From Cyanophora paradoxa CCMP329 (taxonomy: Eukaryota; Plantae; Glaucophyta), in NCBI GenBank assembly GCA_004431415.1, contig QPMI01000034.1:1-64000 (forward strand): a DNA stretch of 64,000 bases, given 5' to 3'. Both the position numbers and the translations under genes were made by a program. This document shows, in pieces, positions 6,995 through 55,743 of the stretch (position 1 is its first letter; every line of letters begins with the position of its first letter). A model generated the notes under the pieces. The model saw only the letters and a program-made list of their open reading frames with translations. It made no database searches and was not told the DNA's origin.

Positions 6995-9900
6995 ATGAAG
7001 AGCGTGCACGGCATGCGGAGACATGCCGCCTCGCGGCCGGCGGCGGCGTCGCACAGACTCTTCGCGGCGGCGCTCCTTGTAGTCTTGGCGCTGGACCCGC
7101 TGCACGCAGCGCCGACGGCCCCAGCGGACCCCGTAGATAGTCTTTCTCAGGTTGCTTCGGCCGATGAGACGTGCCGCGTGCTCGTGGACGACGTCGTTTT
7201 CGACCTCACCCCGCTTGCCAGCATTCATAACGGCGGTGCGAGCACGCCTTCCGCTGCGCGGTGTAGCTCTTCTGAATGGAAGCGCATGCAGGTCTCGATA
7301 CGATGATAGGCGACTCGATACAGCTCAACCCGTGTGGACCTGTCAGCAATGCGCTGTGCCCTGCTGGGTGCGAGCTCCCGCTACGTGTGCCCGCGGACCC
7401 TTAGCTAATTGAGCTGGCAGGTCGTCGGTGTGTCGCCTCGACAAGACCGACAACCCGAACAAGGACATCGGGTCGTTCAGCTCGCGGATCTGGGTCACGC
7501 AGCAGGGCTTCCCGGTTCTCAGCCTGGAAGGTGCGCGCCGCGGGCAGGACTCGGAGAGTGCCGGAGGGCTGACCGGCGAGCGCAGGCGAGAAGATCAAGC
7601 CGGACGAGGAGCAGCGGTACAAGACGCTGATCCTGTTCAAGTGCGACGAGACGGCGAAGGGCCAGGGCGCGATGGACCTGGTGACTATCAACGGAACGGA
7701 CCCGAGCCTGCTCACGCTGATCTGGCGGACGGCGCTCGTGTGCCGCTCGGGAGGCGTCCTCTACCCGCCCCTCTCGACGGCCTCGCCCGAGGCGGTCACG
7801 GCGCGCTCGGGCGAGAAGGCGTACTTTACGGTGCGCCTCAAGGACGGGAACCGGCAGGAGCTGCAGAACTGCACGGGGATGAGCCCCGTCGTGGCCGTCG
7901 ACATCGGGCCCGTGTCGTTCGAGCCCTCGTTCGACGCGGCCACCTGCACCGCGCGCGTCGCCGTCTGGGCCGCCGCCGCGAGGCTCTACCCCGTCGCCGT
8001 CCGCGTCAACGGCCAGCTCATCGGCACCGCCGTCACCCTCACCGTCACGCCGAGTGCGCCCCCGCCAACGCCGAGAACCCCTCGAACCGGCCGGCGCGGC
8101 TGACGCCAGCGGGGGCGGGCAGGCGAGCCCAAGATGTGGTTCTTCCTGGACCTGCGGCCGCTGGTGGCGGGCAGCCCGTACAGGATCCGCTTCTACGCCG
8201 TCGACGCCGCCGGTGCGGCGCCCGCCGCCCTTCGACGGCGGCGCGGCTGAGGCGGGGCGCAGGGAACAACGTGACCTTCTGCGTCGCGCCGGGGGCGGCC
8301 GGCTCCTCGCAGGCGCTCTTCACCCTGGCGGACGGCTCGCAGCCGGCGCTGCCCATCGCCTGCAACTCCGGCGACTACTACGTCGAGGCCTCGTGCGCCC
8401 GCCCCCGCGCCCGCCCCCGCCCGCCCCGCCCCGGAGCGCGAAGCGGCGGGCAGGTTCACGGTGGCGGGGGCGGGGAGCGTGCGGATGGTGGTGAACGGGA
8501 CGGAGGTGCTGCAGTCGGCGCTGGAGGTCCAGCCCTCGAGCTTCGTCGCCCCCTCGTGCTCCCTCCTCTTTGAACAGAACGACCCCAGCTCCGTCATCGC
8601 CGGCCAGCCCTGGGCCACCCTGTCCGCCCCGAGTCCCCCCCGCCCCGCCCCGCCCCGCCCCGCCCGGACCCGGCCAACCCGCGCGGCGCAGGGTGATGTG
8701 CACCCAGGACCGGTTTGGAAACAAAGAGGCGGGGTGCTACCCGCAGCACGGGATCACGGCGGCGGTGGCCGGCCCGACGGCGGTCACGACCGTCTCGCAG
8801 TGCGCCACGCGCGGCCTCGTCGAGATTAGCTTCACCGCCACGCGCGCCGGCCTGTGCGCCCGCCCCGCCGCCCCTCCCTCCCCGCCCGCGCGCCGCCGCG
8901 AGCCCCTCGCCAGGTACACGGTGTCAGTGAACGCGTCGGGGGAGGCCATCCCGAACGGCCCCGTCGACGTCGTCGTCCTCCCCGGTGCCCGACGCCGGCC
9001 CCGCCCCCGGCGCCCCGCGCGGCCGACGCGCGTGCGCAGCGTCGCCCGAGGCGACGGAGGCCGAGCTGCGGGACAAGTGCCCGCTCGAGTTCCGCGTCGC
9101 CGGCATGCAGTGCGTCGCCTACGTCCAGATGAAGGACAAGTTCGGTGCGCAGCGCCCCCCCCCCCCCCCCCCCCCCCCCCCCCGCGCGCCTCACCGGGGG
9201 GCAGGGAACCCGTCGGCGGCGTGCGAGGACACCGGCCTCAAGCTCGTCATCAACGGCCTCGACGGTGCTCCCCGCCGCCCCTCTCCTCCCCCTCCCCCTC
9301 TGAGCGCCCCGTAGACAACTCCACTGCCACCTACACCTACAACCGTCCGCCCCGCCGCCCCCGCCGCCCCGCTCCCCCTCGCCGCCCGCCGCCGAGCCCG
9401 CGCGGCAGAGTGCCTGGACGGGGCCTACGCCTTCCCGTACAACATCACCAAGGCCGGCCGCTTCACCCTCGGCTCCTACAGGTCCGCCCCGCCCCGCCCC
9501 GCGCCGTCCGCGAGGGCCTGGCGCGACGGCCGCCGGGGCGCAGCACGACGAGCGGCGTCAGCAGCAACGCCGTCGCCGTCACCGTCGTCTCTGGTGCCCC
9601 GCGCCCGCCCCCCCGCCCCGGCCGCGCCCTCCCTCCGGGGTCGCGGGGGTGACGGGGCGGGCGCGCGCAGCGGCCTTCACGCCGACGCAGTCGTACCTGC
9701 TGCGGGACGTCCCGGTGCGGATGACGGCCGGCGTCTCGGACACGATCCGCGTGCAGGCCGCCGACCAGTTCGGCAACGCCAAGTCCGACTGCACCGGCGT
9801 CGACTTCGTCATCTCCCTCACCGGTCCGCCCCGCCCCGCCCCCCGCCGCCCGCCCCGCCCTCCCGCCCGGCCGACGCGCGGGGGCGGGGCAGACATGAAG

Positions 9901-11323
9901 GGGCGGATCAGCACGATCTCGAACAACACCTTCTGCGCGGACGGCGTCTCGTCGGCGCCCGTGGCGCTCACGAAGAGCGGCCGGTACTCCCTCTCGGTGA
10001 CCTCCCTCTCCACGAGCTTCCCCATCAAGGAGAGCCCGATGGCGCTCATCGTGGCGCCCGGGCCCCTCGACCCCGAGAACTGCATCGTCTTCGGCGAGGG
10101 CGTCACCGACGGCGGCACCGCGCACGCCAACGTCCAGTTCTCCATCCAGGCCCGCGACGCCTACGGCAACTACATGGAGTCCTGCGACCAGTCCGCCCTC
10201 TTCACTGTCCGTCGCCCCGCCCCGCGCCCCCCGCCCCCGCCCCGCCCGGCGCCGCCTGACGCGCCGGGGCGGGCGGGCAGGCGCACGTGGCGATGAAGGG
10301 GGTGGCGGACGGGCTGGCGTCGGGCGGGAGCGACGTGAGCTCGCCCTTCGCCGACTACAACGTCGGCCGCACCGCCGCCGCCAAGATCCTCGGCACCGTC
10401 ACCTCCTGCCGCTCCGGCGTCTACAACATCACCGTCCGCCCCGCCCCGCCCCCCCGCCCCGCCCCGCCCCGCCCCGCCCTGCCCGCCGCTGAGCGCCGCG
10501 CAGTACGTGCCGCCGGAGCCGGGCGAGTACCTCATCGAAGTCCGCTACGCCAACGTCAGGTACGCCGCGCCGCCCCCGCCCCCGCCGCGCCGGTGCCGGG
10601 CGGGCCGAGCGTGCGGGGCAGCATCACGGCGGAACCGTTCGGGGTGGTGACGAAGCCGCCGCTGCCGGACTCGTCGTCGCGGCGGGAGTCGGAGGTCATC
10701 TTCCTCATCTGCATCATCTGGGTCGCCGGCCTCCTCGTCCTCGCCGGCGCCTGCTTCCTCGGTGCCCCGGCCCCCGCCCCGCCCGCCCCGCCCGCCCCGC
10801 CCGCGCTGACGGCGCGGGGGGCGCAGACTGGAGGCGGAAGCGGGGCCTGGGGAGCATGGGCTCGGAGGGCCCGGACCTGGAGCGGGGCGGGAGCGCGGCC
10901 TCGGACGCCGCCTCGCCCGAGGAGAGCCGCGGCGGCCGCCTCCTCAAGGAGGGCGCCCCCGCAGCGACGCCCCCGCCCCGCCCCCGCCGCCCCCGCCGGG
11001 GCCGCCCCCGCGGGCCCCCCGGCGGCAGCGGCACGCCGCCCTCGAGCTCGCCGGCGCCCTCGCCGGCGGTGCAGTCGCCCGAGACGGGCTCGAGGCCGCC
11101 GGCGCCCCCGTCGGGGGCCACCAGCCGCCCGGCGACCCCCCCCCCCCCGTCGAGCTCAAGGAGTTCGGCCCCGCCTCCGCCCGCGACCCCGACGACCCCC
11201 CCGCCAGCCCCTAGACAGCACCCGCAGGCAGCATTACCGTTTTTCACATCGAACAGATCGTTTTTTTTCAGCTGCCGGCCGTCGCGTGCGCCTGCAAACG
11301 CCGCGGCGTCCACTGCTCGCTAG
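6995..11323 (+). CDS. Type-I membrane protein: signal peptide, MRH (mannose-6-phosphate receptor homology) domain, several filamin-type Ig repeats, TM helix, Pro/Ser-rich tail
   Basis: Hydrophobic leader (LFAAALLVVLAL). MRH signature VFDLTPL..LNPCGPV..VC..TLILFKCD..LIWRTALVC. Filamin motifs QDRFGN, KDKFGN, ADQFGN, RDAYGN. TM VIFLICIIWVAGLLVLAGACFL then WRRKR. About 18 short introns. Confidence 0.8.
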
Positions 11324-11594: not shown

Positions 11595-14500
11595 ATGGAG
11601 AGACCACCAAAGTACGTGCCTTCTAGATGCGATAGCTCTGCGGACGTCGCTCCTTGCCCGCCAGCGTGGCCGTCTCGTCGTCCTTCGTAAGCTTCCGCTC
11701 CGTAGCTCGCGGCCGTACGGCTTGCTTCGTGTAGCCGCATGGGCTGAAAAGTATAAGAAGCCGTGCCTGCGCTTTGCTGATCGCCCCCGCCGCAGAGGCC
11801 CCGCGGCTGTCGGCCCGCCGCTCGCAATTCGGCTGCCGGACCTTCCCGGCCTGCCACATCTACCGTAAGCCCAACCGCGCACTCGCATGCGACGCTAGCT
11901 AAGGCCTTCCTGCAGACCGAAGCCTCCACCGGGCTTGATCCCGGGGCACACGGGATGGGTTTCTCCGAGGCCGCCCACGTCACAGAGGAGCGGGGGGCAG
12001 TTCGCGCGCAAGCCAGGCAGCGCCGGCGGTCGCCCTCCAAGCGCTGGGCCCGTCGTCACGCCTGCGAAGACCCCCGGCCTGGATGGTGCGCCAGTAGCTA
12101 ACCCAGCAGGCTCCCACAGCCGGCGCCGCTGACGCCCACGACAGTGGCGACCGAGATGCCTGTGATGCCAGCCGAATCGGCGCGGTCAGCGCGGCCGCCG
12201 GTGCGGCGGCTGAGCCTCGCGAGCGAGAACGCGTCGCCGGCCGCGCCGCCGCAGCGGGCGCGCTCGGCGGGCCCGACCGGGCGGCTGCCGCCGCGGGTGG
12301 CGAGCACCGAGCCGGATCGGCCGCCCACCGCGGCGCAGTACCGCACGTTTGACCAGAACATGGGTCGCCCGGGCAGCCGCGCCGCGCACGCCGGCGCCCC
12401 GTCGCCCCCGCCGGCGCCGGCCGTGGCGCCCGGACCGCACGGCCCGTCGGAGGCGGGAACTGGCGGGGGATGGTGGCGGCGAACTGCGCGCCCCGGCGCC
12501 CGACGGCGGAGGCGGCCGAGTCGAGCGCGCAGGAGGCGGAGGCGCGCGCCGCCGCCGAGATGTCCGAGGCGGCGGCGGCGGCGGCAGCGGCGGCGAAGGA
12601 CATGGCGGGGCGGCGGCCGACGGAGCGGATCGGGGTGCTCTGGAGCCCCGGGGCGGTGCACCTGACCGTCCTCGGCATCTACAACGCCGACATGAAGCAC
12701 TCCGGCGCCGAGCGCGGCCGCGCCGCCTCCCCGCGCCCCGCCTCCCAGGCCCGCCCGCCCCTCCCGCCCCTCCCGGCCGCGCCGAGCGAGGCCGGCGCTG
12801 AGGGTGCGGCAGGGCGGAGGACCAGCACGAGCCCGTCGCCGACGCGCGCCGCGCTGGCCGCCCCGACCCCGCCGGCCACCCGGCCCCCAGCGCGTGCGCC
12901 CCGCCAGCGCCCCCGCCCCGGCCCGCGCCCGACGCCGCGCGCAGGGGCGTGACGACGCGGAACGCGTGGGTGGGGACGGCCGGCGTGCCCCGCACCGACT
13001 CGCCCCGGGGCCCGCGAGGGCGGCGAGGCCGGCGGCGCGGGGGCGGCGGGGGCGGAGGCGGAGGCCGTGGCGCGGGCGGGGAGCAACCCTTTCGGGGAGC
13101 TGGCGGTGCCGGGCTCCGAGCGCGAGGAGGACCGCGATCCCGTGCGCGCTTCCCCCTCCCCCGCCCATCCCGGGGCCCGCCCGGCCGCCCACGCCGCGCC
13201 TCCGGGCCCGCAGGAGGACCACCCGTCGTTCCCGCTGGAGGCCTTCGACGACTTCACCTTCGAGACGCGGGAGCCACGCGAGTGGCTCGCCCTGGGGGCC
13301 GGCCGCGGGGGCACCCCGGCCCGCTCCCTCTACTGGGTGCCCGAGGCGGGCGGGCACTACGCGTGGATGCCCTGCGACGTCGTCGGCTACGACGAGCGCC
13401 TCGACAAGTACGAGATCCGCTGGCGGCACGTGGACAAGAAGAAGCTCGTCAAGCGCCTCACCCTCATCTTCGACGTCGAGCAGCCGGCCCGCTTCCAGCT
13501 CCGCATCCGCACCGCCCGCCGCCTACGCTCCGAGGCCGAGTGCCTCAAGGTCCGCCCCGCTTCCCGCCCCCCGCGACCCTCCCCGCCTCGTCGAGCCCGG
13601 CGCCCGCGCAGCGGCTGTGGGAGTACATCAACGGGGACGCACCGGAGGACCTGCCGCCGCTCGACGAAGAGGCGACGCTGCGCATCCTCTCCCTCGCGCC
13701 CCCCGCCCTCGACCAGTCCCGCCTCCCCTCCGTCCGCCCGCCCCCGCCGCCCTCCTGCCACACGCCCTCCCTTTACTCCGGGGGCGGCAGGTGGACCGGA
13801 TCCTGCAGGAGGTGCGGGAGAACCACGCGTACGGCGTCAAGCTCGCCCGCTACCTCTACCGCGTCCGCATCCCCGCCCCCGTGGCACCGGGCGCGCCTGG
13901 GCCGAGCCGCGCGGCAGATGAAGGACGGGCTGCAGTTCGAGGCCTTCCGCCACATGAAGCTGCCCCCCATCAGGGAGCCGCCCTTGGCCCCCGAGTGCGC
14001 CTTTCTCCCCCATCGCACCGCGCGCCGCCGCCCGGGCGAGCGCCGGGGTGGCGCGCAGGATGGGCTGCCTGCAGCTCGAGGAGCGGGAGTTCGAGTTCGC
14101 GGAGACGGCGGGGGCGCTGCAGGGGTGCATGATCCGGACGCTGCCGGGGATCGCGGAGGCGCTGGACGCGCTGGGCGGGGCGTGGATGAAGTACTCACAC
14201 CTCCGCTTCCTGGACGGGCGCCTCCACCGCGAGCAGCTCCCGCTCGAGCTCGCGGCCTTCGTGCGGGCGCAGGAGGCGCATATGCAGGACGTCGAGGACC
14301 AGCTCTTTACCCAGTGGCGCGCCGCCGTCATGGGCGCCCTCTCCGACAACCTCGACGTCCGCCCCCGTCCCCGCCCCGCCCCTCCCCTCCGCCCCGGGCC
14401 GAGCCGAGGCCGCCCCCGCAGGGCAAGTACGACTTCTACGTGTTGAGCGAGGAGAACTACGCGGGGACAGTGCTCAACCGGGCGATGTGCCTGGTGACGC

Positions 14501-17500
14501 GCATCATGGGGGACCAGCTGCGCCTCCTCGTCGCCTGCTCCGTCCTCTCCTGGGTCGCCTTCTTCGAGCAGTGGCTGCCCCGCGCCCGCCCCCCGCTACC
14601 CCCGATCCCCTTCGTCGGCGGGGACGCGTGGCGCGACGAGCTCCCGCCGCTGCGGCAGCCGCTGCTGAGGGTGGCGCTGAGCCTGGACGAGGCCGGCGGC
14701 TTCGTCTTCGTGCCCTCGCTGGAGGCGGTCGAGGCGGAGGTCCTGCGCGCCTTCGACCTCATGTTCACCGACTACGCCAAGATCGCCACCGTGCGGCCCC
14801 GCCCCCGCCCCCGCCCGCCCCGCGCGCCCGGCGGACGACGGGGGCGCAGCCGGAGAGCTCGCTGGTGCCGCTGCTGAGCTCGCTGAACGCGAACATCCCG
14901 AGCATGCCGCGGGAGCACGCGCTGGTGGAGGAGGCGCGCCGCCGCATCCGGGCCGTGCTGGAGGCCAACGCCGAGGGCCCGCGCGCCGTGATGGACTCCT
15001 ACGCCGAGTTCCGCTACCTCTTCGAGGCGGACCCCATCGAGCGCGCCGCCGCCCTCCACGCGTCGCGCCCCACGCTGGAGGAGTACGCGGCGGAGATCGG
15101 ACGGCTGCAGCGCGCCTCGACGGAGGTCCGCCTGCGCTCCATCAACGAGGTCGAGCGCGGCATGTACCGCATCCTCACCGAGGAGTTCAAGGAGCAGCTC
15201 GACCGCCGCGCCGCCCTCCAGGCGCACCTCCACCTCACCACGATCGCCTCGGACTGCCGCGAGCAGAACGTCACGATGTGCGGCGAGTTCGAGGTGATGC
15301 TGGCCACCATCCTGCAGGAGCCGCCCGACATCGAGCACTGGGTCGAGCTCGACGCCTTCTGCAAGGCCGCGCCCGTCGCCGTCGAGGCCCTGCAGAAGCG
15401 CATCGACGGGGTGCAGGAGTGGATGGACCTCCTCGCCGACCGCGGGCACCACGTCACGGACGAGGAGTTCACCATCTCGTGGGACGCGATCAAGTGGCCG
15501 TGGCGGGTCTACCAGACGCTGGTGGACAACGAGCACCGGATGCGGGAGCTGCACATGCGCTTCAACCGGGAGCTGAAGGCGGACCAGGAGCAGTTCCAGG
15601 TGGACATCCGGGAGTACGCGGCGCAGGCCGACTCGCTGCTGGCCTTCGGGGAGATCGAGGAGGTCGACCAGGTGGCCGACATGGTCGTCAACCTCAAGGG
15701 CGAGCTCGACAAGGCCCTCGCCCGCGCCGCGCTGTACGCATCCCGCGAGAAGCTCTTCGGCGTCTCCCTCATCACCGAGTACCCCACCCTCAACACCCTC
15801 CTCGACGACTTCGAGCCGTGCGCCGCCCCCGCCGCGCCCCCCGCCCCTCCCGCCCCCGCCCAGCGTGAGGGCGGCGCGCAGGGTGCACTCGCTGTGGACG
15901 ACGGCGCTGGAGTTCTGCAAGGCGATGCCGATCTGGTTCGACGGGCCCTTCATCGAGCTCAACGCGGAGCAGGTGGACCAGAGCTTCCACACGTGGATGA
16001 AGACGATGAAGCGGCTGCAGAAGGACATGAAGGAGAAGCCGCAGCCGCTGCGCGTCGTCGAGCACGTGCACGGCAAGCTCACCGAGTTCAAGCCCAACCT
16101 GCCCCTCGTCCAGCTCCTCCGCGTCCCCGGCATGCGCGGCCGCCACTGGGAGAAGCTGAGCGAGGCGGTGGGGACGCGGATCGTGGCGAGCCCGGAGCTG
16201 ACGCTGGTGCACCTGCTGGAGCTGGGGCTGCTGAACCACATGCCGGCGGTGCGCGAGGTCTCGGACCTCGCCTGCAAGGAGTACGCCATTGAGACGGCCC
16301 TCGACTCCATGACCAACGAGTGGCGCAAGATGAAGGTCCGCCCCGCGCCCTCTCCGCCCCGCGCGCGCGCCCGCCCCTTGGGGCCGGGCCCAAGCGAGGG
16401 CGCGCAGTTCGAGACGATCGCGTACCGGGAGACGGGGCTGAGCGTGCTGCGGGCGACGGAGGAGGTGGTGCAGCTGCTGGAGGACCACCTCATCAAGACG
16501 CAGGCGATGCGCGCCTCGCCGTACATCAAGCCCTTCCAGGATCGGGTCGCCAAGTGGGAGGACCAGCTGCGGCTCGTGCAGGACATCCTCGACGAGTGGC
16601 TCCGCTGCCAGACCTCCTGGACGTACCTGCAGCCGATCTTCGAGACGGAGGACATCCAGGCGGCGCTGCCCGGCGAGGCCAAGCGCTTCGCCGGCGTCGA
16701 CACCTACTTCCGCTCCCAGATGACCTACATCTCCCGCTCCCCCTACGTCCTCAACATCACCAACATCGAGAACGTCCACGCGGGCTTCCGCCGCGCCAAC
16801 CTCGACCTGAGCCTCGTGCAGAAGGGCCTCAACGACTACCTCGAGTCCAAGCGCATGGCTTTCCCGCGCTTCTTCTTCCTATCCAACGACGAGCTCATCG
16901 AGATCCTCTCCCAGACCAAGGCCCGCCCCGCCGCCTCCCCGCTCGCCCCGCTCGCGCCGCTCGCGCTGAGGGGCGCGCGTGCGCAGAACCCGCTGCGGGT
17001 GCAGCCGCACGTGAGCAAGTGCTTCGAGGGGATCGCGGAGCTGGACTTCACGCCGGAGCTCGACATCGTCGGCATGAAGTCCGCCGAGGGCGAGGCCGTC
17101 CCCTTCGACGCCGTCCGCTCCTTTCTTTCCGCTCCGCCCCGCTCCGCCGCTGACGCCGGCCGTGCAGGCGGTGACGCCGAACCGGAACGTGGAGCAGTGG
17201 CTCAAGTGGGTGGAGGAGGCGATGCGGGCGAGCCTGGCGCGCATCACCCGCGACGCCGTGGGTGACTACTACGCGACGAAGCGGCGGGCGGAGTGGGTGC
17301 TGCGCTGGCCGGGGCAGGTGGTGCTGGCGGCGAGCCAGGTGGCGTGGACGAAGGAGTGCGAGGAGGCGATCTCCACGCGCAAGGGGAGCAGCGCGCTGAT
17401 GCGCGTCGAGCAGCGCCTCACGAAGCAGCTCGAGGACCTCGTCAACGTTCGCCACCCCAGCCCCCTACGCCCCTCCGACCCCGCGGCTAACGGACCCGCG

Positions 17501-20500
17501 CGGGGCAGCTGGTGCGGGGGGACCTGACGGAGCTCAACCGCATCACCCTCAGCGCCCTCGTCACCCTCGGTGCCCTCCCCCGGGGCCCCGGTCCCCGCGC
17601 GGGCGGCGCTGAGGGGCGTGGCCCGTGCAGACGTGCACGGGCGGGACGTGGTGGGGGAGATGGCGGAGGCGGACGTGTCGGGCGTGGAGGACTTCGAGTG
17701 GCTCGCGCAGCTGCGCTACTACCTCGAGGAGGGCGCGGTGCGCGTCCGCATGATCTCCGCCTCCATCGACTACGGCTACGAGTACCTCGGCAACACCCCT
17801 CGCCTCGTCATCACCCCCCTCACCGACCGCTGCTGTGCGGCCGCTTTCTATCTCGTTCGAGCCTGCGGCGGTTGGCCGGGACTGACGGCGCCGCCCGCGC
17901 GCCGCAGACCGCACGCTGACGCAGGCGCTGCAACTGAACATGGGGGGCGCCCCCGAGGGCCCCGCCGGCACGGGCAAGACGGAGACGACCAAGGACCTCG
18001 CCAAGGCCATCGCCAAGCAGTGCTTCGTCTTCAACTGCTCGGACGGCCTGGACTACCTGGCGATGGGCAAGTTCTTCAAGGGCCTGGCGGCGGCCGGCGC
18101 GTGGGCGTGCTTCGACGAGTTCAACCGCATCGACATCGAAGTGCTCTCGGTGATCGCGCAGCAGATCCTCACCATCCAGCGCGCCATCGCGGCGCAGGCG
18201 AAGAAGTTCACCTTCGAGGGCGTCGAGCTCGCCCTCGACCGCACCTGCGCCATCTTCGTGACCATGAACCCGGGCTACGCGGGGCGCACCGAGCTCCCCG
18301 ACAACCTCAAGGCCCTCTTCCGCCCCGTGACGATGATGGTGCCGAACTACGCGCTCATCGCCGAGATTTCGCTCTACTCGAGCGGCTTCAAGGACGCGCG
18401 CAACCTCGCCCGCAAGATCGTCGCCACCTTCCGCCTCTGCTCGGAGCAGCTCTCGTCGCAGGACCACTATGACTTCGGTATGCGCGCCGTGAAGGCCGTC
18501 CTCGCCGCGGCGGCGCGCCTGCGCCGGGAGAGCGCCGAGGCCGGCGAGGCGGAGCTCGTCCTCCGCGCCATCGACGACTGCAACCGTGCGCCCCCCGCGC
18601 CGCCGCCGCCGCCGCCCCCCGTCCCCTGCGCTTCTTTCCTGAGGCGCGCCCCCGCGCCGCAGTGCCTAAGTTCCTGTCGCACGACATCCCGCTCTTCAAG
18701 GGGATCACGTCGGACCTCTTCCCGACGACGACGCTCCCCGCCCCGGACTACGAGGCGCTGCTGGAGGCGGTGAGGGAGCAGGTGGCGGGGATGAACCTGC
18801 AGCCGCTCCCCGCCTTCCTCGCCAAGGTCCTCCAGCTCTACGACACCGTCCTCGTCCGCCACGGCCTCATGCTCGTCGGGCCGACCCTCGCCGGCAAGTC
18901 CGAGTGCTACCGCGTGCTGGCGGCCGCCCTCAGCAGCGCCGCCAAGGCGGGGCGCGCGGGGATGACCAAGGTGCGCTACCACGTGATCTGCCCCAAGGCG
19001 GTCACCCTGGGCGAGCTCTACGGCTCGTTCGACGAGACAAGCCACGAGTGGGCGGACGGCATCCTCGCGAACACCTTCCGCCAGTGCGCCTCCCCCGAGG
19101 TCGTCGGCGAGCGCCGCTGGATCGTCCTCGACGGGCCCGTCGACGCCGTCTGGATCGAGAGCCTCAACACCGTCCTCGACGACAACCGCAAGCTCTGCCT
19201 CAACTCGGGCGAGATCATCAAGCTGACGGGCACCATGACGATGATCTTCGAGACGGAGGACCTGGCGCACGCCTCGCCGGCGACCGTCTCGCGCTGCGGG
19301 ATGGTCTACATGGAGCCGGCAGCGCTCGGCTGGGAGCCCCTCGTCAAGTCCTGGCTGGCGACCGTCTCGGGGATGGTCAAGGAGCGCCTCCTGCCCCTCA
19401 TCGCCGCCACCCTCGACTGGATCCTCGCGCCCTGCATCGGCTTCCTCCGCGGCCGCGCCCGCCCCTCCCCCGTCGCCGCCGCCGCCTCCGCCTGTGCCGG
19501 GAGCCAGGCGGCGGCCAAGAGCGGGAAGGCGGCGGCGGCGTCGGAGCCGTACCGGCCGCGGGAGGTGCTGGCGACGGACGACGGGTGGCTGGTGGCGAGC
19601 TTCCTGCGGCTGCTGGAGGCGCAGCTGGCGGAGCTGGCGGCGTCGCCGCAGATGGACAGCCTGCGCGACCGCGAGCTCGGCATCCGCGCCGAGGCGCACG
19701 TCCTCTTCGCCCTCACCTGGGGCGTCGCCGGCGCCCTCGACGCCGCCAGCCGGCCCCTCTGGTCCCAGTTCCTCCGCGAGCTCCTCGCGGGGGCCCCCGA
19801 GAGCGGCGGCCACGGGAAGACGCTGCCGAGCAAGCAGACGCTGCCGGACGGGCTCGGCGCGCACGACATCGTGTGGCTCCCCGAGGAGAACCGCTGGGCG
19901 GCCTGGATGGAGAAGCAGCCCAAGTACGTGGTCCCCGCCGAGGCGCAGTTCCACGAGATCGTCGTCCCCACCGCCGACACCGTCCGGTGCGCCCTGCCCG
20001 CCGCCGGCGCCGCCCGCCTGAGGCGCCCCTGCCGGGCAGGTACTGCCGGGTGCTGCGGCTGCTGGTGGAGCACGGGAAGCACGCGCTCCTCGTGGGGGAG
20101 ACGGGCACCGGCAAGTCCCTCAACGTCGCCCGCGTCATGGCGGGGGGGCCGGCCGCCGGGGGCGTGGAGCCCGACAAGTGGGCCTTCCACACCCTCAACT
20201 TCAGCGCCCGCACCAGCGCCGCCCAGACGCAGGACATCGTCGACGGCAAGGTCGAGAAGCGCCGCAAGGGCGTCTACGGGCCCACCTTCGGTGCGCCCGT
20301 GCCCGCGCCGGGCCGGAGGGGCTCGGGGCGGCGGGCGCGCCTCCTCACTCACGCCCCGCGCGCAGGGAAGCGCTTCGTGGTGTTCGTGGACGACCTGAAC
20401 ATGCCGGCGCGGGAGAAGTACGGCGCGCAGCCGCCGATTGAGCTGCTGCGGCAGTGGATGAACTTCGGGGGCTGGTTCGACCGCCGCTCGACCGACTTCA

Positions 20501-23500
20501 AGCACGTCGTCGACACGCAGTTCGTCGGGGCGATGGGCCCGCCCGGCGGCGGCCGCAACCCCGTGACCCACCGCTTCCTCCGCCACTTCGTTCTCATCGG
20601 CCTCACGCCGTACGACGACGAAAGCCTGCGCACCGTCTTCGGCACCATCCTCGAGTCGCGCCTGAAGGGCTTCCAGTCGAGCGTGCACCAGCTGACGCAG
20701 CCGCTCGTGGCGGCGACGGTGGCCATCTACCGCCAGATCGCGCGCTCGCTGCTGCCGACGCCGGCGCGCTCGCACTACACGTTCAACCTGCGCGACCTCG
20801 GCAAGGTCTTCCAGGGCCTCATCATGGCCGACCCCAAGCGCATGAAGGTCGCCACGCACATGCTGCGCCTCTGGGCCCACGAGTGCGAGCGGGTCTTCTG
20901 CGACCGCCTGATCAGCGAGGAGGACCGGGAGTGGTACCGGCGCTTCGTGGGGCAGGTGGCGGAGGAGCACTTCAAGGTCCCCTTCTCGCAGGTCGTCGGG
21001 CCCAACGAGACGCTCCTCTTCGGGAGCTTCCTGGGGGAGGACGGCGGGCCCGTGGCGGGGGACGCGGAGGGGGTCCCCTACGCCGAGCTCCCCTCCATCT
21101 ACGAGGCCCAGCGCGCCCTCGAGGCCTACCTCGCCCGCCACAACCGGCAGGCCCGCACCCCCATGCGCCTCGTCCTCTTCTCCTACGCCGTCCAGCACGT
21201 CTGCCGCGTGCACCGCATCATCCGCCGGCCCTTCGGGCACGCGCTGCTCGTCGGCGTGGGCGGCTCGGGGCGGCAGAGCCTGGCGCGCCTCGCGGCGCAC
21301 ATGGCCGAGTACGAGCTCTTCACGGTGGAGATCGGGCGGCAGTACGGGCGGGTGGAGTGGGCGGAGGACTGCAAGCGGCTGCTGCGCAAGGCCGGCGTGG
21401 ACGCGCAGCCGTGCGTGCTGCTCCTCTCGGACACGCAGATCGTGATGGAGAGCATGCTGGAGGACGCCAACAGCATGCTCAACGCGGGGGAGGTCCCCGG
21501 CGTCTTCGCCCCCGAGGAGATGATCGCCATCGCCGACACCCTGCGGCGCCACGCGGGGAACGCGGGGCGGGGGACCTCGCTGCAGGCCGTCTGGGCCTTC
21601 TTCGTGGAGCGGTGCCGGGAGAATCTGCACGTCGTCCTCTGCATGTCCCCCGCCAGCGACGCCTTCCGCACCCGCCTGCGCATGTTCCCGTCGCTCGTCA
21701 ACTGCTGCACGATCGACTGGTTCGCGGAGTGGCCCTCGGAGGCGCTGCGCTCGGTGGGCATGCAGGAGCTCGCCGACGTTGACCTCGACGCCCCCGTCGC
21801 CCGCCACAGCCACGGGCTGCACCGGCGGCAGCCCTCGGAGGCCCCCTCCGAGGGCCTCTCCGCCTCCGCCCACGGCCCCGCCGTCGTCAGCGCCCCCGCC
21901 TCGAACCTCAGCGTCGGCGCCTCGAGCTTCCACCTGCCGCCGCCGCCGCCGTCGGGGGAGGAGGAGGATGGGGCGAGGGAGGAGGAGGGGGCGGGGCGGG
22001 TGGAGCACGGCCTCAAGAACTCGACGGTGGTGGACTGCGCGGTGGCGATGCACGAGTCCGTCCTCGCCCTCGCTCGCCGCTTCCACGCCGAGCAGCGCCG
22101 CCCCGTCGCCGTGCCCCCGACCTCTTTCCTCGAGCTCATCGGCATGTTCAAGGCGATGCTCGAGAAGCGCCGCGAGAGCGTCCGCGCGCAGCGGCAGCGC
22201 TACCTCTCCGGCCTCGACAAGCTCCTCGCCACCGCGAAGCACGTCAAGGAGCTCCAGGGCGAGCTCCGCAGCCTCCAGCCGACGCTCCTCGCCAAGACGC
22301 AGGAGATCGAGCTCCTGGTGAAGCGGATCGAGGCGGAGACGGTGGAGGCGGAGCAGACGAAGGTGATCATGAAGGGGGAGGAGCAGGAGGCGTCGGAGGC
22401 GACGGACGTGGCGCGGGCGATCAAGGCCGAGTGCGAGGCGGAGCTGCAGCTCGCGATGCCGCAGTACATGGAGGCCCTCGAGGCGCTCCAGACGCTGGAC
22501 AAGGCGGACATCGTCGAGGTCCGCTCCATGAAGAGCCCGCCGCACGGCGTCAAGCTCGTCATGGAGGCGACGTGCATCCTGATGGGGATCAAGCCCCGCA
22601 AGAAGGGGGTGCCCGAGGGGGAGAGCCCCTACTGGGAGGTCTCCAAGAAGGAGCTCCTGGGGGACCCCAAGTTCCTGCAGCGCCTCGTGGAGTTCGACAA
22701 GGACAACATTCCCGACGCCCGCATGGAGCTCCTCGCCCCCTACATGGACAACGACGAGTTCCTCCCCGAGAAGGCGCGCCCATTTTGCTGCTGTGATTGT
22801 TTCCCTTGTGTCTGGCCCAGGCTGAGGCGGGTGGGGGCAGGTGGCGCGGGCGTCGAAGGCGGCGCGGGGCCTCTGCATGTTCATCCGGGCGATGGGGACC
22901 TACCACCGCGTCGTCAAGGAGGTGGCCCCCAAGAAGGCCCGCCTCGTCGCCGCCGAGGACCGCCTCCGCGCCGTCGTGGAGCAGCTGAACGCGAAGAAGG
23001 AGTCGCTGCGGCTCATCGAGCTGCAGATCGCGGACCTGACGGCCTCGTACCGGCAGGGCCTGGGCGACAAGGAGGCCCTCCAGGAGCAGGTCGCCTCGTG
23101 CGAGCTCCGCCTCGAGCGCGCCCAGAAGCTCCTCGGCGGCCTCGTCGGCGAGAAGGACCGCTGGACGGCCGCCGCGCACGCCCTCGGCGCCCAGTTCGAG
23201 AACATGGTCGGGGACGCGCTGCTCGCCTGCGGCGCCCTCGCCTACCTCGGGCCCTTCACCAAGCCCTACCGGGACGAGTGCGCGGCCGGCTGGCTCGAGC
23301 TGCTCGACGAGCGCTGCGTGGCGATGGGGGACGCGTGGAGCCTGGTCGGCTGCCTGGGGGACCCCGTGCGGCAGCGCCAGTGGCTCTCGTTCGGCCTCCC
23401 CTCGGACCCCTTCTCGACGGAGAACGCGCTGATCGTGACGGAGGCGCGGCGCTGGCCGCTCATCATCGACCCCCAGGGCCAGGCGACGGCGTGGATCAAG

Positions 23501-26500
23501 CGGCTGGAGAAGGACCGCGGGCTCATGGCGGCCAAGGCGCGGGACCCCGAGCTGCTGCGCGTGCTGCAGAACGCCGTCCAGCTGGGGACGTGCGTGCTGG
23601 TGGAGAACGTGGGGACGGCGCTGGACCCGGCGCTGGACCCGCTGCTCTCGCGGCAGGTGGTGCAGCGGGGCGAGGGCCTCGTCGTCCGCATCGGGGAGCA
23701 CGAGGTCGAGTACTCCCCCGACTTCCGCCTCTACCTCGCCACCCCGGCCCCCAACCCCAGCTTCGCCCCCGAGCTGGCGGCCAAGGTCACCGTCGTCAAC
23801 TTCAGCCTCACCGAGGAGGGCCTCGCCGAGCAGCTGCTGGGCGTCGTCGTCGCCGCCGAGCGGCCCGAGCTCGAGAAGGAGAAGAACGAGCTGATCGCGC
23901 AGTCGGCCTCGAACCGGCGGGAGCTGCGGGACCTGGAGGACACGGTCCTCTCGCTGCTCGCCAACGCGGAGGGGAACCTCCTCGAGAACGAGAAGCTCAT
24001 CAAGACGCTGCAGCAGTGCAAGTCGACCAGCGAGGAGATCAACGCGCGGGTCAAGATGGCGGAGTACACGGAGAAGAAGATCGACGAGACGCGGGGCAAG
24101 TACCGCCCCGTCGCCGCCCGCGCCGCTGCCCTCTTCTTCGTCGTCTCCGAGCTCCACGCGCTGGACCCCATGTACCAGTTCTCCCTCGCCGCCCACTCCA
24201 AGGCCCGCCCCGCCCTCCCCCCGCCCCCGCGTCTCGTTTGCCTCGCGCTGAGGGGGCGGGGGGGCAGCTCTTCGAGGGGACGATCGCGGGGGTGCCGAAG
24301 GAGGAGACGCTGGAGGGGCGCCTGGCCTCGCTCGCCGCGCACTTCACGCAGGCCGTCTACGCCGCCGCCTGCCGGAGCCTCTTCGAGCGCCACAAGCTGC
24401 CCCTCTCCCTCGCCCTCGCGTTGAAGGCCGTCCAGTCCGACGACCGCCTCGCCGCCGAGGCCGCCGCCCGCGCCCGCGAGGCCGAGGTCCGCGAGGCCCG
24501 CGCCGCCGCCGGCGGGCCCCAGGCCGGCGGCGGCGCCCAGGCCAAGGGCGGCCCCGCGGCCTCCGCCCGCGACTCGACCAACTCGCCCCGCCGCGTCCCC
24601 ACGACGCCGGGCGCCGTCCCCGCCACCCCGGGCGGCCCGCCGGCGCCCTTCTCCCTGCCCCGCCCTCCTCCCGCCGCCCCAGCATCGACGCGACGCCCGG
24701 CGGCGTGCCGGCGACGCCGTCGGCGCCGCCCACGGCGCGGCGGCGGTCGCCGGTGCCCGGGGCGGGCCCCGGGCGGGGGCGGCGGCCCTGGAGGAGGAGG
24801 CGCTGGAGCTCGGCCTGCCGCCCTTCGCCCCGCCCGAGCCCCGCGTCGACCCCGCCGAGCTCCGCTTCCTCCTCACCGGCGGCGCCCTCGCCGCCCCCGA
24901 CGAGGCGGAGGCGCCGGGGCCGGCCTGGCTCGCCCCAAGCAGCTCGCCGAGCTCCGCCAGCTCGCCCGCCTCCCGCCTTCGCCGCCGCCGCCGCCCACGC
25001 CCTCGACCCCGCCCACGCCGACGCCTGGCGCGCCTGGGCCGAGGGGCCCGCCCCGCACCGCTCCCCGCTCCCCTGCGCCCGGCCCCGCGCCGGCCCCGGC
25101 GGGGCCCCGCCGCCGGCCCCGCCCAAGCCCCGCGAGCGCTCCCCGTCCATCACCGGCCCCGCCGGCCTCCCGCCCGCCGGCCCGAGCCCCGCCGCCCCTC
25201 CCTCGCCCCCGCCCCGCCCCGAGGCCCGCCGCCCCTCCCTCGCCGCCGGCGCCCGGCCCAGCCGGCCGCCGCGGGCCAGGCGGGGCCCGGGGCGACGAGC
25301 CCGTTCGTGTCGCCGCTGCTGGGCCCGCTGCCGACGCCGAAGGGCCCCGAGCCGGCCGGGATCGCGGCGGCGATGGCGCCCCCCGCGGTGCCCCCGCTGG
25401 GCCTCGCCCCGCCGCCCGCGGCCCCGAAGGGCCTCTCCCCCTTCCAGCTCCTCCTCCTCGTCCGCGTGCTCGCCCCCGCCAAGCTCGTCCCCGCCGTCTC
25501 CGTGCGGCCCCGCCGGCCCCCTCCCCCCCGCCCCCTCGCTCGCTGACGCCCCGCCCCGCAGGACTTCATCGCGGGGGAGCTGGGGGCTGCGTTCGTGGAG
25601 CCGCCCCCGATGGACGTCCCCGCCGCCTACCGCGAGACTGGCCCCGACACGCCCCTCCTCTTCCTCCTCAGCCCGGGCGCCGACCCCGTCCCCCACGTGA
25701 CGCGCCTCGCCCAGCAGCTGCGCTTCCACCTCAAGCTCGCCGTCGTGTCGCTGGGGCAGGGCCAGGGGGCCCTCGCGGAGCGCCACATCCGGGATGCCGC
25801 CAAGCGGGGCGCCTGGGTGCTGCTCCAGAACTGCCACCTCGCCGCCTCCTGGATGCCGGCCCTCGAGCGCCTCGTCGACCAGGCCGCCGCCGGCGACCTC
25901 GGCACCGTGCACCCCTCCTTCCGCCTCTTCCTCACCTCGGCCCCCACCCCCGCCTTCCCCGTCTCCGTCCTCCGCTCGGCGGTGAAGGTGGCGGCGGAGG
26001 CGCCGCGGGGCGTGCGGGCGCTGCTGCAGCGGGCGTACGCGGCGCTCTCGCCCGAGTTCGTGGACGGGGCGGAGTACTGCCAGTGGAAGGCGGACGTGCA
26101 GATCCCCGGCAACGAGAAGAAGAAGCCCCCGAAGGAGTCCCCCGCCCGCACCACCTTCAAGCGCCTCCTCTACGCCCTCTGCTTCTTCCACGCCGCCGCC
26201 CTCGAGCGCCGCAAGTACGGGCCGCTCGGGTGGAACGTGCGGTACGAGTTCACGGAGGGGGACCTCGCGGTGAGCGTGCGGCAGCTGCACGCGTTCCTGC
26301 TGCCCCGCGGCGAGGAGGGCCCCGCCGCCCTGCCCCTCAAGACCCTCCACTACCTCGTCGGCCACGCCAACGCGCGCCCCGCCCCTCCCCTCCCGCCACT
26401 CCCGCCCCTCTCTCCCTTCTGACCTCCTCGCAGTACGGCGGCCGGGTGACGGACGACTGGGACCGGCGGGCGCTGCTGGCGCTGCTGACGGAGTCCCTCT

Positions 26501-27756
26501 CGGAGCAGGCGGCCGCCGCCGCCGGCCACCGCCTGACCCCCTCGGGGCTCTACCGGGCGCCCGCGGACGGGCCGTACGAGGGGGTGCTGGAGCACGTGCG
26601 GGGGGTGCCGGCGCGGGACGAGCCCGAGGTCTTCGGGCTGCACCCCAACGCCGAGCTCGCCTACGGCCTCGCCGACTCCGCCTCCCTCCTCTCCTCCCTC
26701 CTCGCCCTCCAGCCCCGCGACGCACCCGCCCCGGGCGGCCACGCCGCCGCCGCGCACGCCCCCGCCCCGGTCCTCTCCCCGGCGCCCTCGCGGCGGGGCC
26801 CGGGCCCGGCCCCCGGCCCGCCGGCCGGTTCGAAGGAGGGCGCGGTGCTGGCGGTCGCCGCGGAGATCGTCGGGCGCCTCGCCGGCAGCCTCGAGGGGGA
26901 CGCCGCCGCCACGGGGCGCCCGGCCGCGTACGAGGACCCGATGAGCGTGGTGCTCGCGCAGGAGCTGCAGCGCTACGGGCGCCTCCTCGCCGCCGTGCGG
27001 GCCTCCCTCGCCGACCTCCGCGCCGCCCTCTCGGGGCTGGCGCCGATGTCGCCCGAGCTGGAGGCCCTCGCCCAGGCCCTCTTCGACGGGGCGGTCCCCG
27101 CCGCCTGGGCCGCCCGCTCCTACCCGACCCTCAAGCCCCTCGCCTCCTGGCTCGCCGACCTCTGCGCCCGCCTCGCCTACCTCCAGCGCTGGGCCGACGA
27201 GGGGCCCCCCGCCAACGCCTGCTTCTGGCTCCCCGCCTTCTTCTTCCCCCAGGCCTTCCTCACCGCCGTCCTCCAGGGGTACGCGCGCCGCCACCGCGTC
27301 CCCATCGACATCCTCTCCTTCCGCTTCGCCGTCACCCGCCACTCGGGGGCGCCCGGCGACGAGCCGGCGGCCGCCCCGCCCGACGGCTGCTACGTGCGCG
27401 GCCTCTTCCTCGAGGGCGCCCGCTGGGACCCCGCCGCCGGCTGCCTCGCCGAGCAGCGGGCCCGCGAGCTCCGCGCCCCCTTCCCCGTCCTCCAGCTCCT
27501 GCCCTTCCAGACCCGCACCTACGGCCCCGCGGGGACGGCGGGGCGGGCGAGCTTCAAAGACACCGGCCCGGGGGCGCTGAAGCCCGGCCTGGAGTGGTAC
27601 GCCTGCCCCTGCTACAAGACGGCGGGGCGGGCCGGCACGCTCTCCACCACGGGCCACTCCACCAACTACGTCCTCACCGTCCACCTCCCCTCCGACCGCC
27701 CCGAGGCCTTCTGGGTCCGCCGCTCCGCCGCCCTCCTCTGCTCCCTACCCGAGTAG
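11595..27756 (+). CDS. DNAH1: Axonemal inner-arm dynein heavy chain, DNAH1/DHC2-like (>=20 introns; start uncertain, 11595-12156)
   Basis: P-loops GPAGTGKT (~17960), GPTLAGKS (~18880), GETGTGKS (~20095), GVGGSGRQS (~21255). [33 protein letters not shown], stalk coiled coils, C-terminal [19 protein letters not shown]-terminal [14 protein letters not shown] and [14 protein letters not shown] resemble the DNAH1 tail. Confidence 0.93.
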
Positions 27757-29275: not shown

Positions 29276-29546
29276 GCATCGACTTTCGACGCGCTCCCTC
29301 CTCGCCCCGACTTCAACCCTCTCCTCTCCCCTGCCCGTCTCTCACCTGCACGCCGCCCTCTTTAATTCCCCTCCCGCGCTCCAGCCTCGCTCCCTGCCCC
29401 CCGGCGCCCCATTGTCTGCTCCCCCCCCCCCCCCCCCCCTCTGCTCAGCTTCCCCACCCGCCTCTGCGCTACGACTGACCTCCGCCCCCACCTGTGCCCT
29501 GTGAATAGAACCAACCCTGCTTTCAAACGAAGGCGCGCGGCGCTCG

Positions 29547-35589: not shown

Positions 35590-35808
35590 CGCGCAGCAGC
35601 TCCTCCCGCCCTTCCCGCCCTCGGGCCTCCCGCCTCCCCGACCCCCGTCCCCACTCGCCGCCGCCCAGCCCCCTCGAGCCCCAAACCAACTCGTTCCACC
35701 CGCCTCTCTCGACCCCACCTCTGGCTCCGCGCCCCCTTGCACCGCCAGACCTCGCCCCGCCCCTCGAACCAGAACCAGCACCCGTGCTTTCAAATGTACA
35801 GGCTAGTA

Positions 35809-45878: not shown

Positions 45879-46017
45879 CTGCCCCCGTCTCCCCCCTTTC
45901 CCCCCTCTTCCCCCCCCCCACCCCACCCCCCCCCTTCCTTCAAACTCCTCCGGCCGGCCTCCCTCCCTCCAGCGCGCACCGGGCCCCGCGTTTCAATGTA
46001 CAGCTCGTTCGAGGCCG

Positions 46018-55562: not shown

Positions 55563-55743
55563 CCCGAGCTCGGAGCGCCGCCCGCCCGCCCCCGCCCGGG
55601 CCCCATCCCCCAGCAACGAGAATGCTTGCGCGCGTCTGTTGGCAAGAGCACACAGGGAAGAGGGGCCTGGGAGACTCGAAAGTTCGGGGTGCGCGGTGGG
55701 AAGAGGGAAGGGTGCAGGGGAGAAGGGCAGGGCGCAGGGGGTG

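Follow-up and report, generated by a model that had tools for sequence, protein, structure and literature searches.

Silent-site codon choice in the analysed genes of Cyanophora paradoxa is organised by the exon, not by a fixed period. G-ending codons prevail where exons begin and C-ending codons where they end: G3 is 0.77 in the first 30 exon nucleotides (n = 429) and 0.09 in the last 30 (n = 468), where 91% of the sites are C-ending. Where a codon lies within its exon nearly decides which synonym is used, an effect much stronger than the slight exon-end trend reported for Ectocarpus siliculosus. We tentatively regard the pattern as an extreme form of the weak splice-related G/C antisymmetry of that species, which selection for intron recognition may well have produced.

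Genes and features of the window

All statistics were derived from nine hand-annotated genes, three of them on the minus strand, in one window, the whole 64-kb stretch of DNA that was analysed. An automatic intron scan gave many false calls and served as a guide only. Runs X15-X19 were taken as RNA by guess; GT-AG joints are present in them, and they are termed RNA-type here. The axonemal dynein heavy-chain gene was identified by the Pfam domains DHC_N2, AAA_6, AAA_7, AAA_8, AAA_9, MT and Dynein_C and by homologues at 72-80%. It has 21 introns annotated from position 13142 on, four of which are GC-AG, and a GC3 of about 0.98. The host genome is GC-rich and intron-dense. The features referred to below are as follows.

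4144..5407, minus strand: eIF3d-like gene (named by eye) with the same exon polarity
7586..11213, plus strand: intron-dense gene, exons of 30-468 nt, many introns confirmed by joints
12156..27756, plus strand: axonemal dynein heavy-chain gene, its start codon presumed; the exons keep a consistent frame and contain no stops
14850..15817, plus strand: 968-nt exon with G-ending start, C-ending end and internal switches at about 15062 and 15458; unbroken RNA-type contig
16921..16986, plus strand: GC-AG intron on a C-to-G switch; 66-nt joint in 4/4 RNA-type runs
17113..17167, plus strand: GT-AG intron on a switch; joint in 4/4 RNA-type runs
18663..19986, plus strand: 1324-nt exon with internal switches
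19451..19507, plus strand: in-frame 57-nt stretch, C-rich then G-rich, intron-like (GG..AG) but unspliced
19987..20039, plus strand: GT-AG intron on a switch; joint in 4/4 RNA-type runs
20291..20365, plus strand: GT-AG intron on a switch; joint in 4/4 RNA-type runs
20366..22773, plus strand: 2408-nt exon; 10 internal C-to-G switches at irregular distances, the first at 20664 and the last at 22566; RNA-type contigs near-continuous
22774..22840, plus strand: GC-AG intron on a switch; split contigs in runs X15 and X17
22841..24202, plus strand: 1362-nt exon with 5 internal switches
24620..25290, plus strand: low-complexity coding stretch; several single bases missing from the window are present in contigs
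25502..25561, plus strand: GT-AG intron; an RNA-type contig piece starts at 25562
25562..26371, plus strand: 810-nt exon; three switches without introns, placed by the HMM at about 25747, 25978 and 26218
26372..26433, plus strand: GC-AG intron; split contigs in runs X15 and X17
26434..27756, plus strand: last exon of the dynein gene
38706..39916, minus strand: membrane-protein-like gene with the same exon polarity
55748..57330, minus strand: kinase-like gene (named by eye); exon polarity as in the other genes, further switches inside exons

The stretch 24620..25290, in which contigs carry insertions behind 24657, 24932 and 24971, an X1 contig shows 11 gaps and the frame drifts, was excluded from the codon statistics. 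A GG-AG intron at 19451-19507 was rejected, as contigs of X15, X16 and X17 are unbroken over 19288-19985 and that of X18 over 19288-19875. The stretch lies within an insertion relative to homologues (poorly aligned run 19453-19588) and is possibly a relic intron at an intron-less switch. Exon counts exclude this intron; the switch list and the cycle lengths were computed with it.

Splice-site anchoring of the exon gradient

Among the internal exons (3 of 74 were unscorable), 68 of 71 start G-richer than they end, including 56/59 on the plus strand and 12/12 on the minus strand, which bears out an earlier claim that minus-strand genes share the pattern. The preliminary description had further argued that the pattern is its own reverse complement and hence no transcription-strand bias. 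This argument fails: the gradient from 5' G to 3' C is identical on either strand, so that self-complementarity has no power to exclude a transcription-linked cause.

A C-to-G step occurs at 71 of 78 scorable junctions, and a step of at least 1 at 57/78 compared to 6.1% of 4271 exon-interior points; the proposed placement of introns on C-to-G switches was understated, if anything. Two intron switches reported at 25545 and 26435 correspond to the 3' portions of introns 25502-25561 and 26372-26433. The longer the exon, the later its crossover (rho 0.78 between G-run and exon length, exons of up to 260 nt). The acceptor-to-acceptor unit has a median of 184 bp; 21 of 74 exon-plus-intron units are shorter than 147 bp and 16 of the 18 scorable ones keep the polarity, which in the gene at 7586..11213 is retained down to 50-nt exons.

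The C zone covers about 60-75 nt before the donor and continues through the first two-thirds of the intron, and the G zone begins close to the branch point and takes in roughly the first 50-60 nt of the following exon. The switch is off-centre, lying about 15-20 nt before the acceptor in gene direction. Both zones form a plateau, decay within 60-90 nt and are back at baseline by about 80-120 nt. The pattern fades in the first 600 nt of genes, and introns up to 600 nt from the start codon lack the signature and are spliced all the same (C share 0.42-0.44 vs 0.63-0.72, 19 vs 65 introns, p = 5e-8). The 3' ends of genes and the 3' UTRs are C-rich on the sense strand, and the mirror G arm is mostly absent at the C-rich 3' ends of non-convergent genes. 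In the final 90 nt of the dynein gene 0 of 20 four-fold codons are G-ending, and no strong mirror G arm follows.

Runs of G-ending and C-ending codons

The alternation of G-ending and C-ending codon runs described earlier is confirmed by the 2471 four-fold G/C sites of the dynein gene, which form 726 runs compared to 1217 +/- 24 in 1000 shuffles that kept codon family and next base (z = -20.5). This makes the gene the most extreme of 65 dynein loci, the 64 homologous ones ranging from z -6.3 to +4.4; 16 of 80 loci had been dropped for too few four-fold G/C sites. The comparison loci were found by uninterrupted match, so they test the interior runs and not the exon polarity. All eight four-fold families respond equally. 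At aligned codons the zones are not common to homologues (mean r = -0.013 over 27 high-GC3 loci), and they are therefore not set by the protein. Protein-determined zoning was rejected by this comparison and CpG-driven zoning by a flat CpG o/e and an equal switch of non-CpG families; zoning driven by cryptic donors was likewise rejected.

Switches within long exons

Inside exons, 46 C-to-G switches lie farther than 60 nt from the nearest splice site, and a model based on exon-end enhancers gives no reason to expect them. The intron-less switches reported near 25745, 25975 and 26220 were recovered by the HMM at 25747, 25978 and 26218. Internal switches have less pure zones (0.72/0.22) than introns do (0.83/0.12). 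The suggestion that the C-to-G switch is abrupt within exons receives weak support, with log-likelihoods of -1296 for a sawtooth, -1301 for its reverse and -1289 for a symmetric shape. Among these 46 switches no marking motif was found. Internal switches are enriched neither at intron-like breaks of homologues (4/27 within 30 nt, 21% expected) nor at insertions (7/37, p = 0.30), a weak test because the homologues are distant and intron-poor.

A regular period of 200-250 nt, as originally proposed, did not survive autocorrelation and Fourier analysis. The whole-gene spectrum consists of a broad band of about 200-350 nt with a peak at 215 nt, and the autocorrelation falls to a trough of -0.12 at 100-140 nt with a rebound of only +0.03. 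Twenty-seven interior cycles at least 75 nt from splice sites span 63-498 nt with a median of 237 nt; intron-less switches exist as described, and their spacing, said to be similar, is as irregular as random two-state switching (CV 0.52 vs 0.55 +/- 0.08). Relative to random switching, the interior autocorrelation gave p = 0.14 for the trough and p = 0.04 for the rebound. Dwell models fitted worse with increasing regularity (Erlang k=1 -1333, k=2 -1335, k=5 -1346, k=8 -1359), and no rebound was seen 200-280 nt downstream of the acceptors in 14 long exons. The example cycles of 231 and 240 nt in the preliminary description come from an unusually regular stretch. A quantisation of the 27 cycles near 130 nt (p = 0.03 vs a gamma null) was not relied on.

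Composition and folding of introns

The claim that introns begin C-rich holds for 78 of 83 introns at +7..+30, and its counterpart, that they end G-rich, for 52/83 at -20..-4, where G exceeds C, and not for the remainder. The same segment is only 43% pyrimidine and 5% T, i.e. the 3' pyrimidine tract is missing. Predicted pairs bridging the 5' and 3' parts are more frequent than in shuffled introns (6.6 vs 4.5, p = 0.006), with no gain in folding stability (MFE -55.7 vs -55.9). C-load and G-load are uncorrelated within introns (rho -0.08), neither partner-specific RNA pairing (48 exons, p = 0.36-0.95) nor better splice-site exposure (44 introns) was found, and intron lengths are not enriched for multiples of three (20/83).

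A proposed compositional code for splicing

Nearly all silent sites in the gene bodies carry G or C, and which of the two is used follows the nearest splice site. In the explanation we tentatively favour, this would be due to selection, and not mutation, for a compositional code that helps the spliceosome to tell short introns from exons. The donor-side C tract and the acceptor-side G/purine zone might act as splicing enhancers or as loose C:G bridges, replacing the pyrimidine tract. The choice between G and C is presumably cheap, so that weak selection could fix a preference almost fully. Interior runs fall outside this explanation; they could be remnants or cryptic versions of the code's unit, or chromatin could add a layer of its own. 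In favour of the explanation count the exon polarity itself and its persistence in units below 147 bp, G runs that track exon length, zones that decay without an echo, introns with C-rich starts and few pyrimidines near the acceptor, the greater purity of zones at introns, the parallel in Ectocarpus, zones not common to homologues and the excess of bridging pairs. Against it count the interior switches, the splicing of introns near start codons without the signature, the shift in all families and before every next base, i.e. without motif specificity, the lack of partner-specific pairing, of better splice-site exposure and of a correlation between C-load and G-load, the C-rich 3' UTRs, and a folding energy that is unchanged or 2-8% weaker than in shuffles. 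The pattern is neither confined to exon ends nor tied to specific enhancer motifs, given the 46 interior switches and the shift of all families and contexts.

A more far-reaching version, which we consider doubtful, is that this glaucophyte has given up the 3' polypyrimidine tract in favour of a C-then-G code, which runs from the end of one exon through the intron to the start of the next and occupies nearly every silent site, the same unit recurring in long exons where introns have been gained or lost, possibly in register with nucleosomes. If true, codon choice, intron position and chromatin would share one signal. The long-standing question of whether splicing selection, chromatin or mutation underlies codon bias near splice sites becomes open to direct test here, in an alga that can be cultured and has a published methylome. 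The bias also provides a simple feature for predicting genes in this genome, with gene structures described by its authors as problematic for HMM predictors (PMC6704402), and it calls for caution with codon-optimised transgenes and synonymous-rate estimates in the glaucophyte lineage.

Alternative explanations

It is conceivable, though rather unlikely, that positioned gene-body nucleosomes bias mutation, repair or selection and leave a palindromic signature of a G-rich and a C-rich half, with introns located at, or inserted into, the C-to-G point, the presumed linker. The self-complementary pattern, its palindromic step on both strands and its fading near gene starts fit this reading, which accounts for interior runs. 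So do the 184-bp median unit and the loose 140-240 nt scale of interior cycles, whose lengths are closer to those of exon plus intron (KS p = 0.06) than of exons (p = 0.01); the Erlang models with k=2 (220-nt cycle) and k=1 fit equally well. Passages of two yeast studies describe asymmetric palindromic base profiles of mononucleosomal DNA that reach the codons (PMC4422121) and nucleosomes movable by synonymous changes (PMC5088595); in the same passages these signatures are population averages, mainly of A/T, and not near-deterministic at each locus. Further objections are the reset in units too short for a nucleosome's 147 bp, cycle variation equal to random switching instead of regular spacing at the repeat length, regular models 12-26 log units worse, the missing phased echo from introns and the off-centre switch in gene direction. 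Two observations keep a nucleosomal signature among the rivals, namely the runs in exon interiors and the missing pattern at introns close to gene starts. In a literature search on nucleosome mapping in Cyanophora, the MNase passages of the matching paper concern Micromonas. Very improbable is that linker-phased methylation, DNMT5-type 5mC or AMT1-type 6mA, writes the pattern. A published table lists AMT1 = 0 and AMT6/7 = 0 for C. paradoxa (PMC12695648), and the passages at hand ascribe internucleosomal 5mC to haptophytes and prasinophytes. CG methylation of C. paradoxa is described as DNMT1/DNMT3-type and mainly on repeats and silent genes (PMC12344493), and the passages on this methylome do not list DNMT5. 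In the window, CpG o/e is 1.03-1.12 across zones and switch, the non-CpG families GTN, CTN and GGN switch as much as NCN families, and neither CpG nor ApT is enriched at the 46 internal switches (CG z at most 1.6). The CpG spectrum, which has no verified positive control, peaks at a ratio of 2.4, within the 1.0-4.2 of other loci, and an AMT1 6mA mark would be expected at the 5' end of genes, where the pattern is absent. Of the chromatin or methylation reading put forward initially, the link between introns and switches is real; methylation phasing is unsupported.

No mutational process known to us yields 91% C over the 30 nt next to a donor, which speaks against a neutral by-product of transcription, a reading that we find unlikely. 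It holds that the state of the polymerase or of R-loops changes around splicing and 3'-end processing, with the result that C upstream and G downstream of each site is promoted by mutation, repair or gene conversion; runs in exon interiors would then be traces of polymerase pausing or of introns since lost. In its favour, the shift is the same in every family and context, and the pattern, missing from the early part of genes, is found ahead of stop codons and in 3' UTRs. An intron-like stretch that is not spliced also coincides with an internal switch, and amino-acid usage is little affected (E/D odds 1.45, not significant; Q/H odds 2.2, p = 0.03 at variable columns). A phase-dependent mutational model has been proposed for gene-level skew in fungi (PMC3315797), where, as far as the passages concerned show, the polarity is opposite and gene-wide. 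Internal switches lack enrichment at insertions or at intron-like breaks of homologues, and cycles are longer than exons. Single-base deletions in the window near 24.6-25.3 kb, one hand-annotated intron that turned out coding and the manual annotation of nine genes might point to an artefact of assembly, annotation or protein composition. This is refuted and practically negligible: DNA contigs match the rest of the window with 0 differences in the long pieces listed, the shuffles keep the amino acids, the homologous loci reach only the z values given above, and their aligned codons do not share the zones.

Comparison with known systems

By title and beginning of abstract, no prior description of the pattern in Cyanophora was found, in a search with most subscription literature outside its scope. 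As in DNMT5 systems, the sequence of algal gene bodies is patterned on the scale of nucleosomes, with effects on codons and on where introns lie, and linker-phased intron insertion was reportedly described by Huff, Zilberman and Roy in 2016. In passages on the DNMT5 internucleosomal CG methylation of prasinophytes and haptophytes (Huff and Zilberman 2014, via PMC12344493 and PMC12695648), the signal is a strand-symmetric CpG enrichment with a regular period, in contrast to the flat CpG o/e, G vs C skew and irregular spacing found here. The yeast profiles resemble the present pattern in their asymmetric palindromic composition, which reaches codons at a 150-200 bp scale in fission and budding yeast (PMC4422121; PMC5088595). 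According to excerpts of these studies, they are defined by mapped nucleosomes, visible mainly in A/T and only as averages, regular and also present in non-transcribed DNA, whereas the pattern here concerns G/C and is visible in each exon, irregular and splice-anchored.

Complementary low-complexity composition at opposite intron ends, to which the C-rich starts and the less consistent G-rich ends of the present introns may correspond, is known from structure-bridged introns, i.e. the (AC)m-(GT)n introns of zebrafish, described as U2AF2-independent, and the GGG/CCC introns of human (passages of PMC4691745). The human introns have G first and C last, opposite to the order here, and structure-bridged introns exceed shuffled ones in stability; in the present introns bridging pairs rise modestly, folding energy does not improve, and the composition spreads into synonymous sites. 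Fungal genes likewise carry a transcription-oriented GC skew at four-fold sites. As described in parts of PMC3315797, in which exons are not analysed, this skew is opposite at the two gene ends and runs from C to G gene-wide, whereas in C. paradoxa G comes first and C last, with a reset at each intron and C-rich gene 3' ends.

The closest parallel is Ectocarpus siliculosus, in which, as reported in passages of a study of splice-related skews (PMC3787667), CTC, GTC and ACC are disfavoured at exon 5' ends and preferred at 3' ends, and GTG, ACG, CGG and CTG show the reverse. Both species share G-ending codons at exon 5' ends, C-ending codons at 3' ends and an effect that decays from the splice site. 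In the same passages, the Ectocarpus antisymmetry is a 'nuance' within mostly symmetric trends, CCC is symmetric and the 3' pyrimidine tract is classical. In C. paradoxa, by comparison, the pattern is nearly deterministic (77% to 9% G3), involves all eight families and runs on into C-first introns that have no pyrimidine tract; it also reappears within long exons and weakens towards gene starts.

Gene content and annotation

With 73% GC, many genes and short introns, the window can be set beside the C. paradoxa assembly paper, whose accessible text gives 67.6% GC and, for introns, 9.2 per gene with a mean length of 86 bp (PMC6704402). An RPL18 exon of the window matches the EukProt protein tig00000142_g8653.t1 at 99% (next matches at most 82%), and this protein is named in the style of the genes in that paper. 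Nine genes were annotated by hand; they contain 83 introns with a median length of 64 nt and 74 internal exons with a median of 122 nt. GC donors occur in 16 of the 83 introns, e.g. at 16921, 22774, 24203 and 26372, and many introns, GC-AG ones included, are supported by contigs from sequencing runs presumed to be RNA. The region described previously takes in most of an axonemal dynein heavy-chain gene, whose exon frames agree without stops. Compared with DNA and RNA-type contigs, several single bases are missing from the window at 24.6-25.3 kb, shifting the dynein frame; 24620-25290 was therefore excluded from the statistics, and the deletions are likely assembly errors. Another G is missing behind 12454.

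Dynein gene and other features of the window
12156..27756, plus strand: axonemal dynein heavy-chain gene
33000-33800: intergenic DNA that is AT-richer, lacks the skew pattern and has, by eye, many TCGA/GATC/GTAC-type palindromes; possibly a repeat remnant
47330-47522: second intron of RPL18, AT-richer and, at 193 nt, unusual in its length; a small RNA might lie within it
48320-48410 and 48530-48670: downstream of RPL18, a stretch of about 130 nt in two nearly identical copies (noted by eye), perhaps two small nucleolar RNA genes in tandem
53170-53330: about 20 nt in direct duplication, with palindromic words, close to where an Arf-like gene starts; this gene seems to have a long extension fused to its C-terminus

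The exon as the unit of the pattern

The start is G-richer than the end in 68/71 scorable internal exons (56/59 on the plus strand, 12/12 on the minus strand, where the pattern had been said to recur), and the G share at four-fold sites falls from 0.77 over the first 30 nt of internal exons to 0.09 over the last 30 nt. The proposed link between introns and C-to-G switches was borne out by a step of this polarity at 71 of the 78 junctions. The G-to-C crossover shifts with exon length (rho 0.78; median position 42% of the exon), and the shift is present in all eight four-fold families, regardless of the following base; amino acids show only a weak shift. The median acceptor-to-acceptor unit is 184 bp, 21/74 units are shorter than 147 bp, and polarity is kept in 16/18 scorable exons of these short units. 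Introns have a skew of about -0.57 at +5..+19, and its zero point lies 15-20 nt ahead of the acceptor, close to a branch-point-like motif; a 3' pyrimidine tract is absent from the annotated introns (43% pyrimidine, 5% T).

Read as codons, the donor consensus G[T/C][C/G]CGC is C-ending and the acceptor G-ending, so that coding DNA over a switch is already intron-like. Inside the dynein exons (14850-24200), G-ending codons are disfavoured where T follows (G share 0.21 vs 0.45-0.54) and GT dinucleotides are few (367 vs 410 +/- 7 shuffled), possibly reflecting avoidance of cryptic donors; GCAG is in excess (87 vs 68 +/- 5).

Codon runs and their spacing

G or C occupies 2471/2497 four-fold sites of the dynein gene. 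The reported alternation of G-ending and C-ending codons is real: these sites form 726 runs vs 1217 +/- 24 in shuffles preserving codon family and next base. In a comparison with 64 metagenomic dynein loci (the analysable ones of 80 fetched), the gene's z of -19.6 lies outside their range of -6.3 to +4.4, and the zones are unmirrored at aligned codons in 27 high-GC3 homologues (mean r = -0.013); the codon-run pattern is therefore lineage-specific and resides at the nucleic-acid level. Weaker clustering of G and C (z -4.7 to -6.3) occurs in some metagenomic dynein genes with high GC3, namely L054 (whose introns are C/A-rich) and L060, both from the AAA1 region, L065 and L025, which may be milder cases from other lineages; L058 and L062 show the opposite, alternation above shuffles (z +4.4 and +3.0).

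The 200-250 nt oscillation of the preliminary description survives as a fair mean scale, exact for its own examples, but not as an oscillation. The spectrum of the whole dynein gene exceeds shuffles, a weak null once runs exist, across a broad band with a peak at 215 nt. Runs continue away from splice sites (state emissions 0.75 and 0.15), where cycles measure 63-498 nt (median 237) with a CV of 0.52, in line with the 0.55 +/- 0.08 of random two-state switching. Here the trough falls short of significance (p = 0.14), the rebound is marginal (p = 0.04), and in fourteen long exons there is no rebound 200-280 nt past the acceptor. Erlang models with k = 1 (cycle 139 nt) and k = 2 (220 nt) fit equally, and the more regular k = 5 and k = 8 fall behind by 12 and 26 log units, respectively. 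In length, interior cycles exceed exons (KS p = 0.01) and come closer to exon-plus-intron units (p = 0.06). Interior switches are not enriched at homologue breaks or insertions, and a single candidate relic intron was found at them, 19451-19507, in-frame and intron-like, C-rich then G-rich, with GG at its start and AG at its end. It was rejected as an intron, as RNA-type contigs keep it unspliced; an exonised intron or merely a low-complexity insertion within C-zone codons is possible.

Gene ends and transcriptional orientation

In introns lying up to 600 nt from the presumed start codon (assigned by eye), the C share is 0.42-0.44, vs 0.63-0.72 further in, and the flank jump is small (19 vs 65 introns; p = 5e-8 and 5e-5, respectively). 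Gene starts are AT-richer over the first 600 nt, with introns lacking a C tract (e.g. 2271-2800, 28027-28400, 47143-47900), and promoter regions appear by eye rich in CTAG/GCTAGC-type palindromes. The sense strand is rich in C near stop codons as well as in 3' UTRs, which also accounts for intergenic C-to-G switches at convergent pairs. This 3' UTR richness is strong, and stronger where genes converge than where they lie in tandem (e.g. 3656-4141, 29275-29800, 35590-35820, 45877-46020, 55560-55745). A sustained G arm is mostly absent at six non-convergent gene ends. The argument that a pattern equal to its own reverse complement has no transcription-strand bias thus fails on C-rich 3' ends mostly without a G arm and on the off-centre switch; a transcription-oriented cause is compatible with self-complementarity.

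Possible origins

Our favoured reading, held tentatively, is a splice-site-anchored compositional code under selection; the causal step is one that we infer. Such a code would account for why short units still reset, why the pattern scales with exon length and decays over the distance observed, and why purity is higher at introns and a pyrimidine tract is missing. It leaves the 46 interior switches and the unmarked 5' introns unaccounted for, and these same features keep two other explanations alive: a nucleosomal signature, which is a less probable but serious competitor, and a neutral bias coupled to transcription, which we consider rather improbable. Phasing by methylation, also proposed initially, is very unlikely: a supplement row lists AMT1 as absent from C. 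paradoxa (PMC12695648), and CpG o/e stays level from one side of the switch to the other. According to the available text of another study, 5mC in this alga is maintained by DNMT1/DNMT3 and mostly repressive, and in expressed genes it builds up somewhat towards their ends (PMC12344493). At the RNA level, no partner-specific pairing was found, splice sites are no better exposed and folding energy about equals that of shuffles; 5'-3' bridging pairs in introns are in modest excess (6.6 vs 4.5 shuffled, p = 0.006; higher in 49/83). The initial observation is partly confirmed, and its interpretation partly supported.

Comparison with known systems

No description of the pattern in Cyanophora was found in the literature searched, which covered few subscription journals. 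As far as the accessible accounts go, yeast nucleosomal signatures share its palindromic form and bridged introns share complementary ends with the introns of the window, whereas fungal skews are gene-wide and opposite in sign. The nearest case is Ectocarpus, where, in the available text, codons ending in G and those ending in C are used antisymmetrically at the two ends of exons, with identical polarity (PMC3787667); the trend is minor there, and the pattern in the C. paradoxa window is an extreme form of this kind of splice-related skew.
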